Shown here: positions 1,583 to 43,903 of the stretch, in pieces | Layout of the letters: each line of letters starts with the position of its first letter | Numbering within the stretch: the first letter of the stretch is position 1 | Assembly: GCA_963760915.1 (NCBI GenBank) | Contig: CAVXEU010000002.1 | Coordinates: 1,670,132 to 1,734,131, forward strand | Source: an uncultured Bacteroidales bacterium | GTDB lineage: Bacteria > Bacteroidota > Bacteroidia > Bacteroidales > VadinHA17 | Reading direction: 5' to 3' | Length of the DNA stretch: 64,000 nucleotides | Position numbers and translations under genes: made by a program | Notes under the pieces: generated by a model | The model's database searches: none | The model's input: the letters and a program-made list of their open reading frames with translations, nothing else | Told to the model about the DNA's origin: nothing

Positions 1583-4411
1583 TTATTCATTTACAAGGCT
1601 ATATCCGTCTGTTTTACCTTTTTCAAGCTGGGAAATTCCATATTTCATCCAATAAGGCATAGGAGCACCCTTGAGATAATGATCAAAGAACTGCATTTTT
1701 CTGATGGAAATATCTTTTCTGTTGGGTCTTTTCATCAGGTTATGATCTTCATCATTATATGAGAGAAGCCAGGCTGGTTTCTCAAGACGGCGCAGAGCAG
1801 TAATAAACTCAATACCCTGGTACCATGGAACGGCACCGTCAGCATCGTTATGCATCAGAAGTAAGGGTGTTTTTATCTTTGGAACCCAGAATATAGGTGA
1901 ATTTTCAATATACAGGAGTGGTTTATCCCACAATGTTCCTCCAATTCTGCTCTGTGTTTTTTCATACTGGAACATCCTTGACATACCTGTTCCCCATCTT
2001 ATGCCTCCATATGCGCTTATCATATCGCTTACAACGGCACCTGCATATGCACATGCAAACATATCGGTCTGCGTAACCAGCCAGGCGATCTGGTAGCCAC
2101 CCCAGCTCTGTCCATCAAGTCCAAGCCTGTTTCTGTCGATAAAGCTATACCTGTCGAGAAGTGTAGTTGTGCCACTTACTACCGCGTTATAACAGCTTTG
2201 TCCCGGATAACCTGTCACATAAGTAATATCGGGTACAAAAACAAGATATCCATTACTTACTGCAAATATTCTGTTAATAATCGATGCACTCGGAGCCGGA
2301 GGCATATAATTGTATAATCCGTCAGAGCTTCTTTCATAAAAATAGACTATCATCGGATATTTCTTTGACGGGTCAAAATTCTCGGGTTTATACAGGATAC
2401 CCTGAAGCACCTGTTTGTCGAATGAAGTCCATTCTACCAATTCCGCGGTACCCCAATTATAATTTTTCTGCTGAGGATTGGTTATGGATATTCTGTTTAC
2501 ATCTCTGAAGCTCATATTACTCAGGTACAACTCCGGCGAACTTGTAAATGTCCCTTTCTGCCAGAGAAAAACATCAGTTTTGGTTGCCTTGGCAAGATCA
2601 CCCGGAAATGAAGCTTCAGCCATTATCAGGCTGACAGGTTCAGATACTTTCCCGGGATTCATGGAATAAAATCCTGATTCCTTAGTGCTGTAATTAAAAG
2701 CTGAAAGGTACATTGTTTCTTTCCTGCCAATAAATTCGGCTTCAGGGTCCAGTTTATTATATCTGAACCTAAGGTTATTGTTTCTTCCGAAATTATCAGT
2801 GATATTGACAGGGCTTTCAATTCCGTTAATGTCAAGTGACCAGATATCATACCTGTCATATACAAGAACATGTTTTTCATCGTCCAGCCAGCCGGCTATC
2901 CCGTGAGGGGAAGGATCATCGGGAACATCATTAAGTTCGTCGTAAAGCGGAACTTTTATTGAGGATGTGAGGTTTTTTTTGTTCCCTCCGGTAACAGGTA
3001 TTGACATCCAACCCTTAGAATCATTATCCCAGTACACAATATATTTACAAGTGGGAGACATAAAGGCACGTGTGGGACAATCTTCAATAACAAGCGTTTT
3101 TGTACCGGTTTTAATATTAATAGTATAATAATCAGAAGAAGTCCCACCTGTCCACGACGAAGATTTTCTGTATTTCAGATCTGAAGAACCAAGTGCCAGT
3201 GAGTTGTTACCTTTCTGGTATATCCGGACTGATGGAATAACTGTATCTGCAAGCTGAACCATTTTACCATTCTCCAATAGGTATACAGCCATCCACGTCC
3301 TTTTTTTCTCCTGTTCAAGCTGCTTTTTCTGCATTGGTTGCAGAACAGCATCATCCCATGACCAAATATCGAGTTTGTACTTTTCATCATCCAGCAGAGT
3401 ATCTGCGGGTTCCTTAACCGGCTTTTTTGCAGTTCCGAAAAAAACTCTTTTACCATCATCAGAAAATGTTATATTCCCGTTTTCGCTGACAGACCAACCT
3501 GCCGGCATAGCAGGGTTTTCAGCATCAATTATTTTAATTGCTTTTCCAAGGTTACCTGAAAGCCAGAGATCATATACTTTAATCTTTGCAGTATCAGATG
3601 AATAGATAAATGAAACTAAATTACCAACCCTGTCGTTGCTCAATTTTTTAACACTTCCCTTACCTTCGAAAATAATGTTGCCTGTTTCTTTTCCGGTATC
3701 AAATACATTAACCTTGAAATTTTCTGTTTTGGAGGTATCCGGAATGCTTTGGATAAAACTGATCGTATGTCCGTCAGTCGAAACAACATAATCAGTAACA
3801 TCCGGATATTTGTATTCCTTATTAAGAACAGGGTTAAAAATTACCAGTTCAGATCCTTTTGATTCAGGGATCCTGGGTTTCTTAGAAACCTGAGAGTCGG
3901 CTATCTTTGCAGTGTCAGCGTTTGATTTCTTATTACCGGTTTCAGCAGCTTTCTTTTCCATAAGGTAAGCCATCCAGTATGAGTTTTTTTCAGGAAGTGA
4001 AAAAGATTTAACACGAGAAACAATGGTAACTTCTTTGCCAGGTAATAACCTTATCCCCAGACTGTTTTTTGGCAATTTATCATCCTTCAGTTTTTTCTTT
4101 TTTGCCTGGCGCATTTCATCAAATGTCGGGATTATATGATATGCAAGATATCTGCAGTCAGGAGAAAAAACTGCACGGTTTCCTCTTGAAACAGAATCTT
4201 TACTATGAGAATTGACATTATAAATATACAACCACCCATCGCCCTGCTGAGGATTGATTTCATAAGTAACCCATTTCCCATCCTCTGAAATCGCAGAGGA
4301 TCTTAAACTTTTCCACGCATCGTATACATTATTGTCAAGAGGGGGCTTTTGTCCTGATAAAATAAAAGGAATAAGTAATAATACCGGAAGAAAGATTTTA
4401 ATTCTTTTCAT
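1583..4411 (-). CDS. S9 family serine peptidase (prolyl oligopeptidase/acylaminoacyl-peptidase type) with N-terminal propeller-like region
   Basis: Nucleophile motif GQSWGGY, with a downstream Asp (HNDADGAVP) and His (DEDHNL) in S9 order. The ORF-track start at 4435 is a TTG lying inside a promoter-like box. The ATG at 4411 gives the signal peptide MKRIKIFLPVLLLIPFILSG. Confidence 0.85.
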   Translation of the reverse strand: MKRIKIFLPVLLLIPFILSGQKPPLDNNVYDAWKSLRSSAISEDGKWVTYEINPQQGDGWLYIYNVNSHSKDSVSRGNRAVFSPDCRYLAYHIIPTFDEMRQAKKKKLKDDKLPKNSLGIRLLPGKEVTIVSRVKSFSLPEKNSYWMAYLMEKKAAETGNKKSNADTAKIADSQVSKKPRIPESKGSELVIFNPVLNKEYKYPDVTDYVVSTDGHTISFIQSIPDTSKTENFKVNVFDTGKETGNIIFEGKGSVKKLSNDRVGNLVSFIYSSDTAKIKVYDLWLSGNLGKAIKIIDAENPAMPAGWSVSENGNITFSDDGKRVFFGTAKKPVKEPADTLLDDEKYKLDIWSWDDAVLQPMQKKQLEQEKKRTWMAVYLLENGKMVQLADTVIPSVRIYQKGNNSLALGSSDLKYRKSSSWTGGTSSDYYTINIKTGTKTLVIEDCPTRAFMSPTCKYIVYWDNDSKGWMSIPVTGGNKKNLTSSIKVPLYDELNDVPDDPSPHGIAGWLDDEKHVLVYDRYDIWSLDINGIESPVNITDNFGRNNNLRFRYNKLDPEAEFIGRKETMYLSAFNYSTKESGFYSMNPGKVSEPVSLIMAEASFPGDLAKATKTDVFLWQKGTFTSSPELYLSNMSFRDVNRISITNPQQKNYNWGTAELVEWTSFDKQVLQGILYKPENFDPSKKYPMIVYFYERSSDGLYNYMPPAPSASIINRIFAVSNGYLVFVPDITYVTGYPGQSCYNAVVSGTTTLLDRYSFIDRNRLGLDGQSWGGYQIAWLVTQTDMFACAYAGAVVSDMISAYGGIRWGTGMSRMFQYEKTQSRIGGTLWDKPLLYIENSPIFWVPKIKTPLLLMHNDADGAVPWYQGIEFITALRRLEKPAWLLSYNDEDHNLMKRPNRKDISIRKMQFFDHYLKGAPMPYWMKYGISQLEKGKTDGYSLVNE

Positions 4412-38260: not shown

Positions 38261-39024
38261 TATACTTTGACCCTACTTTTAAAAATTTGTAAAAGATTCA
38301 ATACCGACTTCATAAGTTTTGAAATCGCCATGGTTGCAAAAACAGCGTATCCAAGATGATTGATAATCAGTTTTATCTGATCGTTTTTAAAATTTATATC
38401 ACGACTTAATGATGTTAGTCCAGCCATATCATAAATTGCAATATTTTGATTAAGATAAATGAATTTGTTTTTTCTAAAAATCTTCATATTATATTCCCAA
38501 TCAGAATAAAGTCGATATTTTAAATTAAATTCATTTTTTGTGTATATTTTTCTTGGATAAAATATTGTCTGATGACAAATATTTGTTTTGGCTAATTTAA
38601 GTTTAGAAATCGCCTCACCCTTATATACTGAGATAATTCCTTCTTTGTTTATTGATAAAGCATTTCCGTAATATACAGAACTATTATCTGCAAAATATTG
38701 AATCGCATCTGCCACAGTTTGGCTTGAGCAAAATATATCTCCGGCATTCATAAAAAGAAGAAAATCTCCACTCGCAAGTTTCAGCGATTTATTCATTGCG
38801 TCATAAATTCCCTTATCGGCTTCGATAAGTATTTTAGTAATCTGTGAAGAATATTTGTTTATAATATCAACGGTTCCGTCAGACGATCCTCCATCAATAA
38901 CGAGATATTCTATATTTTTGTAGGTCTGTTTAATAATAGACTCTATCGTTTTACTGATAAGATCTTTTGAGTTTAACACTACTGTGACAATGGAAATACA
39001 GAATCCTTTATCTCTAAGAGTCAT
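38260..39024 (-). CDS. family 2 glycosyltransferase
   Basis: ISIVTVVLNSKDLISKTIESI, EYLVIDGGSSDGT and FMNAGD (DxD-like). Confidence 0.85.
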   Translation of the reverse strand: MTLRDKGFCISIVTVVLNSKDLISKTIESIIKQTYKNIEYLVIDGGSSDGTVDIINKYSSQITKILIEADKGIYDAMNKSLKLASGDFLLFMNAGDIFCSSQTVADAIQYFADNSSVYYGNALSINKEGIISVYKGEAISKLKLAKTNICHQTIFYPRKIYTKNEFNLKYRLYSDWEYNMKIFRKNKFIYLNQNIAIYDMAGLTSLSRDINFKNDQIKLIINHLGYAVFATMAISKLMKSVLNLLQIFKSRVKV

Positions 39025-40309
39025 AAGGTAAAACAGCTTTAGCTAATACTTTGTTATACATTAATTGAATAACTAAAATTACAATTACCATAAATGCTAC
39101 ATTTAGAATAGTATCAAAAAGATAACCCATACCAAGACATGGATCGACTATAAAAGTTATAAATTGAATTACAATATAAAGACTTAAAATTGAAGAAATG
39201 ATACCATTAGGCATCAAAGAAGGTAAATTGAATATTATCATGGAAATCATAAATCCCAGTATAAAAGAGAAGATCAAACCTCCCCAGCCAAAATAAATAA
39301 ACCCAAGTAAGGCTGGAAGGCTTAATGGGCCCGTTGACACTCCTGCACTTGCCGGATAAACTAATCCTGTCAATTGATATCCTATCGGAAGCATTACATT
39401 GTCTCCGCTCATCAACCTTGTAGGACCTATTAATCCATAAAAAAGGTGTTTATACCATTCTCCAATGTCAATATGCATCCAGGTATCCTTAGGTAATGCC
39501 ATGAAATAGGCATCTCCTGAAGAAATTATCCTTTCCATAAACGGACGGAAACTTCCGATAAGGTTGTTCGATCCAGACTGAATCGCAAATGTAACTATTG
39601 TTACAAAAATACCAAGAATAAATATTTTATAATACTTTGTAATCCGAATGATATCTCTTTGAAAAAAAAAACAATAACCCCAGTAGACGTACAAGAAAAT
39701 GAAAAAGCTAGATCTGCTTCCCGAGAGAATCCCTGTTATTATAAAAATAAGAAATATAAAGAATACTAATAATCTTTTAACGTTTAACTTACTACCACTT
39801 TCCCACAAATAAAATGAATAAAAGATACAGTATATCTTTAAAAATGGAATCATTCTTCCAAGTACGCCTAAACCAGAGCCTACATAAGTATCTAGTCTGC
39901 TTCCCATAAAGATCGGTATACCTAAAAGAATATATGTAGCACTCGTAAAAATAATAAACAATACAATAAAGATCAAATACAGGATAAACGAAATATTTCT
40001 TTCATTAGAAAGGACTTTACTGGAAAAACGGATATTTTTTTTTGCAGGTAACATGAAGGCCAGCCAAAAAATTAATTCAGCAAGGCAGAAATACAGAAAA
40101 ATATCTGCTTTTATAGAGCCTTTCATGAACAGGAAAACAAATACAGTCGTAGCAAATGCTGAGGCAACTAATTGAATCCTTAACGGATCAAACCAGGTAT
40201 GAGTATATTTTTTCCCAATATATATATATAAAATTGAACAAAAAGCAAGTGCAAGCAAGTACGTCTGCCAGTTTTTATAAACAAAAATGTAGAATTCATA
40301 ATGGGTCAT
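39014..40309 (-). CDS. O-unit polymerase-like polytopic membrane protein (Wzy type)
   Basis: About 11-12 TM spans with no soluble domains, lying among glycosyltransferases. Wzy proteins lack strong motifs, so the call rests on topology and context. Confidence 0.55.
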   Translation of the reverse strand: MTHYEFYIFVYKNWQTYLLALAFCSILYIYIGKKYTHTWFDPLRIQLVASAFATTVFVFLFMKGSIKADIFLYFCLAELIFWLAFMLPAKKNIRFSSKVLSNERNISFILYLIFIVLFIIFTSATYILLGIPIFMGSRLDTYVGSGLGVLGRMIPFLKIYCIFYSFYLWESGSKLNVKRLLVFFIFLIFIITGILSGSRSSFFIFLYVYWGYCFFFQRDIIRITKYYKIFILGIFVTIVTFAIQSGSNNLIGSFRPFMERIISSGDAYFMALPKDTWMHIDIGEWYKHLFYGLIGPTRLMSGDNVMLPIGYQLTGLVYPASAGVSTGPLSLPALLGFIYFGWGGLIFSFILGFMISMIIFNLPSLMPNGIISSILSLYIVIQFITFIVDPCLGMGYLFDTILNVAFMVIVILVIQLMYNKVLAKAVLPYDS

Positions 40310-40497
40310 ACAGAGATCATGCTAAAAATTAAATTACAAAGGCAGTATGTCTATAATTTGAATATTTAGAATAACAGTTATTGGAAAATATAAATTTACA
40401 CCAAAGAATTCAACAATGTATTTCGAAATTCAAGGCCAGATACCGCAAATAAGTGATAATCTTAATTATAGAAAAGGAGGATAATTCCTATCATAAA

Positions 40498-40827
40498 TTA
40501 AATAGTCGATCCATAATAATACGTGTTTTTCTTTCATTCATCAGCATTGGATATTTACTGGAGGCAAAATAAGTACCTGATAAATCCTGATAAAAATTAA
40601 GTTAAGTATTTCTTCCTTCCTGAACCTCATCCACTTCAACATATTATATGCTGTAACTGCCAATAATATAGAGATCCTGTCTCCTACAATGCCACTGAGG
40701 TAATTTCTTTAACATGATTTTCAGGGTTCTGATCAAATTTAATCAAAACCAAAGCAAAAAACAAGACCACAATGAACATATGTCATTAACAATCGGATTG
40801 TTATAATTATTAAGAACCAACTATTTA
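40498..40827 (-). mobile_element. miniature IS5-family-like element, copy A (internally deleted, non-autonomous)
   Basis: Minus-strand translation gives LLAVTAYNMLKWMRFRKEEILNLIFIRIYQVLILPPVNIQC-stop, a DDE transposase C-terminus pattern. The ends are imperfect terminal inverted repeats (AAATAGTCGATCC.ATAATAAT versus AAATAGTTGGTTCTTAATAAT). It aligns with copy B apart from a deletion of about 140 bp. Confidence 0.55.
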
Positions 40828-42100
40828 TTTTGCAAACAACGAACAGAAAAGCCAAACTGCTTATCAATAGAGCCTCCCCTGTTTACAACACTAGAACTGT
40901 AGTATAAGTAACGAGCCCAAACGTAAGAAGTATTTATCTCTGTAGCCGACCACAGGTAACAGCTACCACCTATGCCGCCAAACGATCCACTTTGATCACG
41001 GAGGCCACCCGGACGAGATGAGAAGCCTGTTTCATTAGTTGCTCCTGTATTGGGACTTTGCCAAAGTGAAATGCCTGTTTCTTTTAGTTTACCTCCTGCA
41101 ACATTTTCACCCCCAAGATATGTTGTTAGTGTTGTCCATTCTGCATCAGTAGGAACATGCCAGCCTGTGGGACATAGCTTTCCTGAGTTTACTGTGAACC
41201 AATTATATAAAGCACCATAAGTAACTTTAATTGAAGGAAATGTTGGTACATCGTTATTATAATAACAATATGCAGATGTGGTTAATTCTGCCCATGTATT
41301 TGGCGCCGTAACCAAAGGTATTGATGTATTATCGTTGAATTTTGTGGTTTTAAGGTTCTCCATCATCCATGTTTGAGTGCCAATGGTTATAGTGTTGTAA
41401 ACATTGAGGTCTAAATCGGTTATAGACGTAACTGCATAAGAAGTAGTAAAGCTTATTTCATTTCCATAAGCTGTTCCTGCACTGTTGGTGGCATATGCTT
41501 TAACATAATATATTGTGTTTGCTGACAGACCTGTTATACTACTTATAAATGTACCAGTGGTACCAGTTTCAGAAGTTTTGGTAGTTAAGGCAATTGTAGG
41601 ATTTAGTGATGCACTCCAACATATTCCCCTTGCAGTAATTGTATCTCCATTGTCATCTGCAATATTTCCACCTGAAGTAGCTGATGTTTGAGTAATTGAA
41701 GAAGTTTCTGCAGTAGTCAAAATAGGAACCTTAATCTGGCTTGTAGTAAATGATATCTCATTACCATAACTTGTGCCATCATTATTCGTAACATAGGCTC
41801 TTAAGCAATAGCTCGTATTTGGTGTTAGCTGGGTAATATTACTGATAAAATGTCCTAATCTACCAATCTCAATAGTCGTGCTATTCATAACGGTAGGTTC
41901 AGCAGATGTATTCCAACAAACACCTCTAGAAACAACTGGGGACCCGCCTTCATTTGTAACTGTACCTCCAGAAACGGCAGTAGTATAAGAAAATCAGCTA
42001 TAGCAGATGTAGTCACTGTAGCAGGACTTGTTTTTTCTTTACATGAATAGAATATGAAAAATAAAAAAATACCTATTGAAATTCTAAATATATTACGCAT
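40821..42100 (-). pseudogene. surface lipoprotein with three tandem Ig/Fn3-like repeats and a C-terminal FISUMP (Fibrobacter succinogenes major paralogous) domain, interrupted by a 1 nt frameshift
   Basis: The lipobox is IFYSCKEK. The two track ORFs (41885..42100 and 40821..41888) join if the A4 run at 41990-41993 is read as A5. The restored text ...ADFSYTTAVSGGTVTNEGGSPVVSRGVCWNTSAEPTV... matches the later repeats (...SGGNIADDNGDTITARGICWSASLNPTI...). FISUMP motifs: IGTQTWMMENL, YGALYNW, CPTGWHVPTDAEW, GFSVRC. Confidence 0.75.
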
Positions 42101-42123
42101 TAGAATTATATTATTTACAGTTT

Positions 42124-42149
42124 AATTAGATATGTTAACATATCTAATT
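42124..42149. repeat. perfect 26 bp palindrome AATTAGATATGTTAACATATCTAATT
   Basis: Checked base by base; it equals its own reverse complement. It begins 24 nt upstream of the lipoprotein start codon at 42100. Confidence 0.9.
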
Positions 42150-42256
42150 TACTATTTGCCTGAAACTAAAAATGTGATTAGCTAAAGACAAACATGATAG
42201 CGTGAGAGGGATTGCGTTGTATGCAAGGAAACCCATTAATTTCAGGCCACAATATC

Positions 42257-42706
42257 TTAAATAGTTGATTCTTATTAATAGGTGTTTTTTGTTTCATTCG
42301 TCAGCATTGGATATTTACTTGTGGCAAAATAAATACCTTATAAATCCTACGAAAAATTAAGTTAAGAATTTCTTTCTCCCTGAACCTCATCCACTTCAAC
42401 ATATTATATGCTATAGCTGCCAATAATGTGTTGATCTTCTCGACGATCGCCTTCTTGATTTTGCCTCCAGCAGGTTCCTTTACCTGTTCCAGTTGGGGTT
42501 CTAAAGTATGTCTATCGTATGCAATGTTCTATCACTTTTTCAGTAAGCTTCCGGTCTGTTGGAAATGTGATGGCTTAGGCAATTTCATAAACATGATTTT
42601 CAGGGTTCTGACCAAATTTAATCAAACCCAAACCAAAAAACAAGACTTAAAAGAACATATGTTACCAACAATCTGATTATTAATAATTATTCAAAACCAA
42701 CTAATC
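42257..42706 (-). mobile_element. miniature IS5-family-like element, copy B (longer copy)
   Basis: Minus-strand translation gives ...EPAGGKIKKAIVEKINTLLAAIAYNMLKWMRFREKEILNLIFRRIYKVFILPQVNIQC-stop. Upstream of it is a short start fragment, MKLPKPSHFQQTGSLLKK-stop. It lies in the same orientation as copy A, and both ends are shared with it. Confidence 0.6.
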
Positions 42707-42817
42707 AATTAGTACTTAAATACATACTCTTTTACAATTTCTACAAACGCGGAGAGCCTGGCAGAAAAACATTTTAATTATAAACTTCATAAATTGTAAC
42801 AATTTCCAACGAAATAA

Positions 42818-43903
42818 TTAAAGGGTTTTGTATAATTGCTTCGTTTGGAGGACTGTTTTTTCCCATGAAAATTTCTTTACATGTTCAAGTCCCCTACTTA
42901 TCAATTCTATTCTTCTTTTAGTATTATTAAGTAATGTTTCAATTGCTTTTGCTATTGACCCTTCATCATAGGGATCAAAATACTCAGCGGCATCTTCAGC
43001 AATTTCAGGAAAACAACTTGAATTACTAATCGCAATAGGGCAGCCTGATGCCATTGCCTCTAATATTGGAATTCCAAAACCTTCATAAAGTGAAGGAAAA
43101 ACAAACAACTCAGCATTTTTATATAATGAAGCCAATTCTGAGTCATTTACTGAAAGAACAGTTGTTACTCCATAAATTCCAAGGTTCATTATCAATATTT
43201 CTTCTGATTTTGAGAACGGATCTCCAACACAGACTAGTTTCAAATTGGACTTTTTTTTATGCACTTGTGCAAAAGCATTCACAAAACGAACGAAATTTTT
43301 ATAATGACGTCTATCTCCAACAAATAATATGTAATTTCTGGGAGTCTGAAATAAAGGCGATATTTTCCCATTATTCAAACGATAGCCCTGATAAATTACC
43401 TCAATTTTTTCAGCATCTGCACCAATAATATCTATTATATCTTGTTTTGTTTGATTGCTTATAGCAATTATCTTTTCGGCTCTAAGTATTAATTCTTTCT
43501 TGTTTTTAATATTAATGTCCTTCTCTGGAAAAAGATCGGTAAACTTCTCATGAATCATATCGTGAACTGTAAGAATAAAAGGTTTGCCTTTTAAGCTCTT
43601 TAAAAAATAAGGATCATAATATGTTGGATGAAAAATGTCAAAATCATTATTCCTGAGAAAATGTTTTGATAGATTTATATTTATAAAATTTATTAATCTT
43701 TTTTTACCACGAAAATTATATTTATTTAATAATTCGTATAGCCTATTATTATTCCCTAAATAGTAATTCTGATCTAACATTCTGGGAAGCATGATCTCAA
43801 TGTTCGGGTCTTTTCTAAATTGGAAAATTAACTCAGAAAAATAGCGCGATACGCCTCCATATTTTTGAAGTGAAAAGATTTGAGCGTCGTATATTATTTT
43901 CAT
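42818..43903 (-). CDS. GT-B fold glycosyltransferase (family 4), paralogue of 36038..37123
   Basis: FPSLYEGFGIPILEAMASGCPIAISNSSCFPEIAEDA. It is 361 aa, and the N-terminus MKIIYDAQIFSLQKYGGVSRYF parallels MKVVFDNIIFYLQRSGGGTIYW. Confidence 0.85.
   Translation of the reverse strand: MKIIYDAQIFSLQKYGGVSRYFSELIFQFRKDPNIEIMLPRMLDQNYYLGNNNRLYELLNKYNFRGKKRLINFININLSKHFLRNNDFDIFHPTYYDPYFLKSLKGKPFILTVHDMIHEKFTDLFPEKDINIKNKKELILRAEKIIAISNQTKQDIIDIIGADAEKIEVIYQGYRLNNGKISPLFQTPRNYILFVGDRRHYKNFVRFVNAFAQVHKKKSNLKLVCVGDPFSKSEEILIMNLGIYGVTTVLSVNDSELASLYKNAELFVFPSLYEGFGIPILEAMASGCPIAISNSSCFPEIAEDAAEYFDPYDEGSIAKAIETLLNNTKRRIELISRGLEHVKKFSWEKTVLQTKQLYKTL

Follow-up and report, generated by a model that had tools for sequence, protein, structure and literature searches.

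Probable decayed copies of an IS5-family insertion sequence on either side of a lipoprotein gene in a Bacteroidales glycan locus

Composite transposons such as Tn9 and Tn903 consist of two copies of one insertion sequence (IS) flanking passenger genes, and elements of the IS5 group, in the ISfinder classification, usually show a target duplication of 3-4 bp. In Bacteroides, genes such as cfiA and nim receive promoters from IS elements next to them, and in O-antigen and capsule gene clusters IS remnants occur at module junctions. The locus described here lies in a stretch of 64,000 nucleotides from the genome of an uncultured peat Bacteroidales bacterium (hereafter the window), in which two short direct repeats, A and B, bracket a lipoprotein gene inside a glycan locus of 33 kb. 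We consider it probable, at about 0.8, that A and B are dead, independently decayed copies of one IS5-family insertion sequence, with the history that is set out below.

Every gene of the glycan locus (about 25.8-58.8 kb) is on the minus strand, as are A and B. In the direction of transcription, the cassette and its borders are composed as follows.

42818-43903, minus strand: GT4 glycosyltransferase gene (Pfam Glycos_transf_1 6e-33, Glyco_transf_4), upstream of the cassette
42258-42707, minus strand: IS5-family remnant B, 450 bp, holding parent positions ~1-145, 572-622, 1025-1112 and 1302-1480 with three deletions (blastn to the full-length relatives L014 and L116)
42683-42707, minus strand: left terminal inverted repeat of B, TGATTAGTTGGTTTTGAATAATTAT, matching the right one at 16/25 positions
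42258-42282, minus strand: right terminal inverted repeat of B
40821-42100, minus strand: FISUMP lipoprotein gene, the passenger (PF09603 2.8e-40, TIGR02145 3.4e-29)
40499-40827, minus strand: IS5-family remnant A, 329 bp, holding parent positions ~1-130 and 1274-1480 with one deletion of ~1.14 kb (blastn to L014 and L116)
40803-40827, minus strand: left terminal inverted repeat of A, TAAATAGTTGGTTCTTAATAATTAT, which holds the stop codon of the lipoprotein gene
39014-40309, minus strand: putative Wzy-type polymerase gene wzy, 431 aa with many membrane spans and no Pfam match, the first operon gene after the cassette

A repeat search of the window confirmed the direct repeats as four collinear blocks with 82-87% identity and an offset of 1759-1880 bp, namely 40526-40681 with 42286-42441 (87%), 40695-40803 with 42574-42682 (85%), 40493-40530 with 42252-42289 (82%) and 40803-40830 with 42683-42710 (82%). 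On pairwise MAFFT alignment, both ends are common to A and B and the interiors differ, and the two copies display 85-88% identity, i.e. 12-15% divergence. Chance likeness between them is excluded by the BLAST E-values within the genome, which range from 1e-35 to 1e-56. With the boundaries of A and B set against full-length relatives, the coordinates given in the initial annotation were right within 1-2 nt. Its description of the pair also stands: these are internally deleted, non-autonomous IS5-family copies in direct orientation, flanking the sole non-glycan gene of the region, with terminal inverted repeats that are imperfect (18/25 in A and 16/25 in B). The ends of the parents read TA(A)nTAGTTGATCCTTAATAATTAT at the left and the complement at the right.

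The source of these copies was recognised in congeneric genomes. Indeed, in a search of 40 relatives, B matched a stretch of ~1.48 kb, and one such locus (L014, found in G010:C32) carries an intact ORF of 459-466 aa (L014 1094-2494) which reaches 427 bits against NF033578 (transpos_IS5_1, IS5 family; cut-off 275 bits) and also matches Pfam DUF772 (PF05598) and DDE_Tnp_1 (PF01609). The parent element has a single DDE transposase of ~459 aa, imperfect terminal inverted repeats of ~25 bp and a QEKNITFPTDRKL motif. The segments retained in A and B are 71-90% identical to L014, L116, L013 and others, the left 130 bp at 81-90% vs 71-83% for the right end, and the closest full-length copy (L034, from the same record as L116) shows 83-89% identity to A and B over the retained parts. 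This homology indicates that A and B are derived from an IS5-family element of ~1.48 kb. A scan of genome contigs also found the element, at 75-100% amino acid identity, in MAGs labelled Bacteroidales, Rikenellaceae, Prolixibacteraceae and Lentimicrobiaceae, several of which have isolate names that indicate peat, fen or soil surveys (SPRUCE, fen_, MFD). The repeats could be imagined not to be mobile DNA but an intergenic repeat conserved in the glycan locus for a regulatory role, a reading that has their position between genes in its favour and nothing else. It runs against clear homology, in nucleotide and protein sequence alike, to an intact IS5-family element that occupies unrelated loci in many genomes, and no Rfam match was found for the repeats; refuted as it is by intact full-length parents with an IS5-family transposase, it deserves practically no credence.

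The reduction of the parent to A and B can be followed at the level of the coding remnants and of the deletion junctions.

42301-42441, minus strand: C-terminal transposase remnant of B (EKINTLLAAIAYNML...VNIQC*; start also EKINTLLAAIAYNMLKWMRF), 46 codons, tblastn with the intact transposase
42563-42572, 42522-42523 and 42436-42441, minus strand: the three deletion junctions of B, each at a 5-9 nt imperfect microhomology in the parent
40541-40708, minus strand: C-terminal transposase remnant of A (RNYLSG...AYNMLKWMRF...VNIQC*), 55 codons, tblastn with the intact transposase
40699-40709, minus strand: deletion junction of A, 11-nt microhomology AAGAAATTACC, fusion out of frame

Neither A nor B, from which 70-78% of the element is missing, can encode a transposase. 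The C-terminal remnants previously reported for both were found again; an N-terminal fragment, which had been assigned to B only, is present in both, in the form of the first ~6 transposase codons, and B has moreover two internal fragments, one of which includes ITFPTDRKLTEKVIEHC. All four junctions of A and B lie at microhomologies of 5-11 nt of the parent, where AAGAAATTACC occurs at transposase codons 3-6 and again ~1.14 kb downstream. Such a position at short parental repeats is the signature of slippage or illegitimate recombination. With L116 as reference, positions 1274-1301 of the parent are found in A and not in B, and positions 572-622 and 1025-1112 in B and not in A. Since each copy retains blocks that are missing from the other, neither is derivable from the other. 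As read from these alignments, the deletions (one in A and three in B) are independent, which replaces the first description of the copies as differing by an internal deletion.

The genome, which is 99.65% complete in 8 contigs, was next searched for further members of the lineage. An intact transposase of the family is absent from it on tblastn with the intact transposase, the matches being A, B and a 34-codon N-terminal fragment at C2:122379-122480, and two further left-end fragments were found by blastn (C5:94984-95128 and C2:122369-122588). The genome thus holds only remnants, which indicates that the IS lineage is extinct there with four relics left. The initial annotation had proposed a search of this genome for more copies and for an autonomous parent: the two extra fragments were indeed found, but the parent is absent from it and present in congeneric genomes. 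Together, these fragments and parents uphold the mobile-element reading.

With about 40 non-identical copies, one tree was calculated for the left 130 bp and another for the right 170 bp, and in both of them A and B are sisters, with an SH-like support of 0.87 (left) and 0.99 (right); the derived bases common to them amount to 3 at the left end and 7 at the right end. The junction of A was seen in 0 of 212 genomes of the genus and in no other copy of its own genome, and the junctions of B were not found in 41 genomes. At least 8 other loci of the genus hold internal-deletion derivatives, the junctions of which are all distinct except for G192 and G189; given that these two share a near-identical gene just downstream as well, they are probably one locus. 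A mobilisable MITE family, moved in trans by a full-length IS5 transposase, would match the small size of A and B (329 and 450 bp), the retention of both terminal inverted repeats with no transposase coding, and the presence of short derivatives of the IS in other genomes of the genus. We nevertheless regard it as very improbable, for the junctions of A and B differ and recur in none of the genomes searched (0/212 for A, 0/41 for B), the genome has no transposase of the family and the copies have diverged by 12-15%. The different junctions, taken with the 0/212 result for A, suggest that the shortening happened in place. Hence, A and B, being sisters with independent deletions, are two decayed insertion sequences and not an amplified MITE family, and the term miniature element, in its MITE sense, does not apply to them.

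The passenger encodes a FISUMP protein with a lipoprotein signal peptide, three Fn3-like repeats and a Fib_succ_major domain; the PF09603 match spans positions 1-186 of the 187 of the profile, and the TIGR02145 match scores 102.8 bits (cut-off 41.65). The gene is present between the copies as initially annotated, but a frameshift in it had been overlooked. Indeed, it is split over two frames, one with the signal peptide (41885-42100, 71 aa, MRNIFRISIGIFLFFIFYSC...) and one with the domain (40821-41888, 355 aa), by a 1-nt frameshift at a T4 run (41990-41993), and homologues of 420-437 aa align across the break. The gene is a probable pseudogene; as the break falls in a T4 run of a MAG assembly, it could be a sequencing error. 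At its other end, the protein terminates in ...VRCLQNK*, one residue longer than its homologues (...RCIKN*, ...RCLKD*), and the last seven bases of the gene, T AAA TAG, fall in the left terminal repeat of A. The stop codon, TAG at 40821-40823, is therefore inside that repeat, in agreement with what was first observed, which places the entry of the IS at the original stop or no more than two codons from it.

Genomes of the genus carry 10-24 FISUMP genes each; the nearest relative of the passenger is 56-61% identical to it, and no close nucleotide copy that would represent a donor locus was found in the genome. An association between the IS and FISUMP genes was considered and rejected: a FISUMP gene lies just upstream of the IS at two more independent loci (one seen in G090 and G119, the other in G179) out of about 45 in the genus, which is near the number expected with 10-24 FISUMP genes per genome. 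A palindrome was also noted in front of the gene.

42124-42149, no strand: perfect 26-bp palindrome in the 161-bp leader of the lipoprotein gene

It occurs once in the genome and was discarded as a repeated operator.

With respect to the surrounding locus, the cassette lies in a spacer and no glycan gene is interrupted by it: the distance from the GT4 stop to the left end of B is 111 bp, and that from the right end of A to the wzy start is 190 bp. The G+C content of the passenger is 37.8%, that of the genome 38.7% and that of the flanking locus 31.6-35.3%. No wzy orthologue was found in 100 genomes of the genus. The sole wzy relative among genus genomes and metagenome contigs, on the metagenome contig L156, is 56% identical at the amino acid level, which is too distant to define the insertion site; this homologue is located between GT4 and GT2 genes, with a GT4-wzy gap of 90 bp and no cassette. 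Recombination between the two GT4 paralogues was considered as well and set aside, these being only 33% identical.

As to how the cassette arose, a composite-transposon origin, with IS-gene-IS as a unit, is plausible from the sequence, and arrival as a unit is favoured by the G+C content of the passenger, which is near that of the genome, and by the wzy relative that has no cassette. Alternatively, the FISUMP gene would have been resident and would have received two independent insertions, B after GT4 and A at the FISUMP stop, with no composite at any time. In nearly all insertions of this lineage, the left end of the IS either overlaps the stop of a co-oriented gene or follows it at 43-782 bp (mostly 50-250 bp), and this placement is also that of B, 111 bp past the GT4 stop, and of A, located at the stop of the FISUMP gene; the sister status of A and B would be expected here also, and no outer target-site duplication was found. 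Since each copy fits the co-oriented placement alone, two insertions explain the layout about as well as a composite. They leave unexplained, however, a lone FISUMP gene of genome-like G+C in a low-G+C glycan operon, and the related wzy module has no FISUMP gene. Two independent insertions are thus a serious possibility, though not the one that we would choose, the odds of the composite vs two separate insertions being roughly 50:35.

The ends of the copies were inspected in this context. No target-site duplication of at least 3 bp was detected on either side of A, B, the pair as a whole or ~10 intact copies, under several definitions of the ends, and the duplications suggested in the initial annotation for A and B were thus not borne out. 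An invariant TA is common to all ends and inseparable from the repeat, so that a TA-NN...NN-TA pattern is ambiguous; the outer flanks of the pair read ...ACTAAT and ATTTAT... and hold no repeat. Moreover, no second occurrence of the IS-gene-IS unit was found, nor an empty site among the genus genomes and metagenome contigs searched for wzy, and the nearest FISUMP homologue (56-61%) is not flanked in this manner.

The placement of the lineage relative to neighbouring genes was recorded separately. For 47 loci of the IS in the genus, co-orientation with the immediate upstream gene was seen in 26 of the 28 that could be scored (10/10 full-length copies and 16/18 truncated ones) and with the downstream gene in 22 of 27, and the left end is mostly found 50-250 bp past the upstream stop. 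In a scan of genome contigs, seven further independent close relatives were all co-oriented with the upstream gene; for close relatives as a whole, A and B included, the figure is about 34 of 36 independent insertions. More distant Bacteroidales relatives (41-76% amino acid identity) gave 14/20, and IS5 relatives elsewhere 15/24 in Thioclava, 2/11 in a Rhodospirillaceae MAG and 5/9 in mixed other taxa; the alphaproteobacterial relatives display no consistent bias. Family-specific orientation biases relative to replication have been reported, and no general bias relative to neighbouring genes (PMC3971601, PMC9208149). We put forward only tentatively, and rather doubt, that this IS5 lineage inserts or survives almost only just downstream of a co-oriented gene, with its remnants kept as promoter modules. 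If true, this would mean either that gene 3' ends are targeted in a strand-specific manner, with transcription or terminators as the guide, or that there is strong selection for co-oriented, promoter-carrying, non-polar insertions. If upheld, the bias could help to understand how DDE insertion sequences select operon contexts or persist in them; it is not needed for the finding described here.

The possible effect of the cassette on transcription was approached through a motif search, which identified a promoter-like box in each copy.

42613-42620, minus strand: Bacteroidetes-type -7 promoter box TAAATTTG of B, ~19 nt before the remnant ATG (42592-42594), directed towards the lipoprotein gene
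40734-40741, minus strand: -7 promoter box TAAATTTG of A, directed towards wzy

The TAAATTTG box is conserved across ~40 copies, about 20 nt before the transposase ATG, which makes re-initiation ahead of the lipoprotein gene and of wzy plausible. Termination, which had been proposed as another possible effect, was not supported, as 0 terminator-like sites were found. A scan for sigma-70-type promoters gave results no better than shuffled sequence, and the leader from the remnant to wzy, with a fold z-score of 0.76, shows no unusual degree of structure and has no Rfam match. With no glycan gene interrupted, the inward promoter boxes kept and no terminator found, the net effect on the operon is likely small, consisting of read-through and possibly of extra initiation before the lipoprotein gene and wzy, as suggested by the motif and by the absence of hairpins.

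A further reading, compatible with the decay of two IS copies, is that the remnants persist as domesticated promoter modules, B for the FISUMP gene and A for wzy and the genes downstream. The TAAATTTG box is kept in both though most of the element is gone, the left 130 bp are the best conserved part (81-90% vs 71-83% for the right end), and in 14 of 16 truncated derivatives of the genus the next downstream gene is co-oriented, often only 5-130 bp off. Yet co-orientation is more frequent with the upstream gene (26/28) than with the downstream one (22/27), the bias is also found in full-length copies and at convergent gene pairs, and the FISUMP gene that B would drive is frameshifted. The bias towards the upstream gene, seen in full-length copies too, argues for an insertion preference rather than for promoter selection, and we judge such domestication unlikely.

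Taken together, the preferred account of two dead IS copies would run as follows. Two sister copies in the same orientation would have flanked the FISUMP gene in the GT4-wzy spacer, most economically by arrival of IS-gene-IS as a composite transposon or, in an alternative step, by an active element that inserted twice beside a gene already present. Microhomology-mediated deletions, one in A and three in B, would then have stripped away most of the transposase gene, the copies would have diverged to 85-88% identity and the passenger would have gained its frameshift. As every intact transposase has been lost from the genome, the cassette would now be fixed in place. The value of this account is mainly one of annotation: it explains the presence of a lipoprotein gene amid a glycan operon, flags the FISUMP gene as a probable pseudogene while the glycan genes are intact, and puts on record an unnamed IS5-family lineage, found in Bacteroidales of peat and soil, whose copies are decaying throughout the genus by microhomology-mediated internal deletions. 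Overall, the cassette is an ordinary trace that past IS activity has left in a variable glycan locus, and the initial annotation was right, largely so in its interpretation.

Compared with known systems, the parent shares with the IS5 family a transposase that matches the family model, a length of ~1.48 kb, terminal repeats of ~25 bp and the QEKNITFPTDRKL motif, whereas A and B differ in that most of the element is gone and no transposase is left; the target duplication usual for the IS5 group cannot be seen in this lineage, not even next to intact copies. A and B resemble MITEs by their small size, their terminal repeats and their lack of coding capacity, but they have not been amplified, their junctions differ and none is shared with other genomes. 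As in composite transposons, sister IS copies in direct orientation bracket a single passenger with its 161-bp leader; here, however, there is no outer duplication and no second unit, both IS copies are dead and the genome has no transposase, and mobility of the unit is accordingly a deduction. Like the Bacteroides IS elements that provide promoters for cfiA and nim, A and B carry a promoter-like box aimed at downstream genes; in the present case it is the predicted inward promoter of the element's own transposase, brought nearer to the host gene by internal deletion, and not an outward or hybrid one. Finally, the likeness to the IS remnants of O-antigen and capsule clusters consists of an IS relic located between a transferase block and wzy in a highly variable locus of low G+C content.

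Internal-deletion derivatives of the parent of copies A and B, the full-length IS5-family element, are common in the genus (loci L113, L114, L115, L122, L125, L131, L136 and L141), with lengths of ~ 270 bp to 1 kb and with both ends retained in several of them. Each of these derivatives displays a distinct deletion junction, except for L131 and L141 (genomes G192 and G189 respectively). In L131 and L141 alike, the junction joins 150 to 722 and a 360-aa gene, near-identical between the two, follows directly downstream, so they probably represent one orthologous locus. Two further relics, reduced to the left end, are found in the genome of the window itself.

Further IS relics in the same genome
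C5:94984-95128 (= L154 4484-4628), left end only, ~ 76% identity to the parent
C2:122369-122588 (= L155 4369-4588), left end only, ~ 76% identity to the parent

Downstream of the C5 relic, at a distance of 480 bp, follows a TonB-dependent-receptor-like gene of 1056 aa in the same orientation. Furthermore, as in the window, a FISUMP lipoprotein gene is followed by a co-oriented IS relic 170-620 bp downstream in three other genomes. With 10-24 FISUMP genes per genome, the number of such neighbours is near chance level.

IS relics paired with FISUMP genes elsewhere
L111 2746-2957, relic, with FISUMP gene at L111 3127-4131
L112, relic and FISUMP gene, arranged as in L111
L113 2220-2595, relic, with FISUMP gene at 3214-3819

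Two palindromes were observed within the cassette. A perfect one of 26 bp, AATTAGATATGTTAACATATCTAATT, is located at window 42124-42149, 24 nt 5' of the FISUMP start codon; it has no further copy elsewhere in the genome and was therefore ruled out as a repeated operator. The other is small and conserved, and lies just inside the IS left terminal repeat.

Window 40770-40790 (copy A), palindrome TTAACAAT-nnn-ATTGTTAA, corresponding column present in all IS copies

In the case of the putative wzy (window 39014-40309), no Pfam match was obtained and no orthologue was found among 100 genomes of the genus. One 56% relative on a metagenome contig displays the matching GT4-wzy-GT2 order.

At L040 3998-4019, close to the end of contig CAISJJ010000017.1, only a 2-bp spacer separates a right IS end from a left one, GGATCAACTA-AA-TAGTTGATCC. 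Possible readings are a tandem dimer, an assembly wrap-around artefact or a form resembling a circle junction. On CAWHSA010000005.1 (~ 25.7-41.9 kb), two full-length copies (L036 and L037), oriented alike and separated by ~ 9 kb, could form a live composite arrangement.

Finally, the IS5 lineage of A and B shows the same orientation as the immediate upstream gene in ~ 34/36 independent insertions, counted over L013-L017, L111-L155 and L032-L059 (from the genus itself and from close Bacteroidales) plus window copies A and B. In most cases the stop of that gene is 50-250 bp away from the left end of the IS. Either targeting or selection may underlie this bias. It is weaker among more distant Bacteroidales relatives (14 of 20) and inconsistent among alphaproteobacterial IS5 relatives, with 15/24 in Thioclava and 2/11 in a Rhodospirillaceae MAG.
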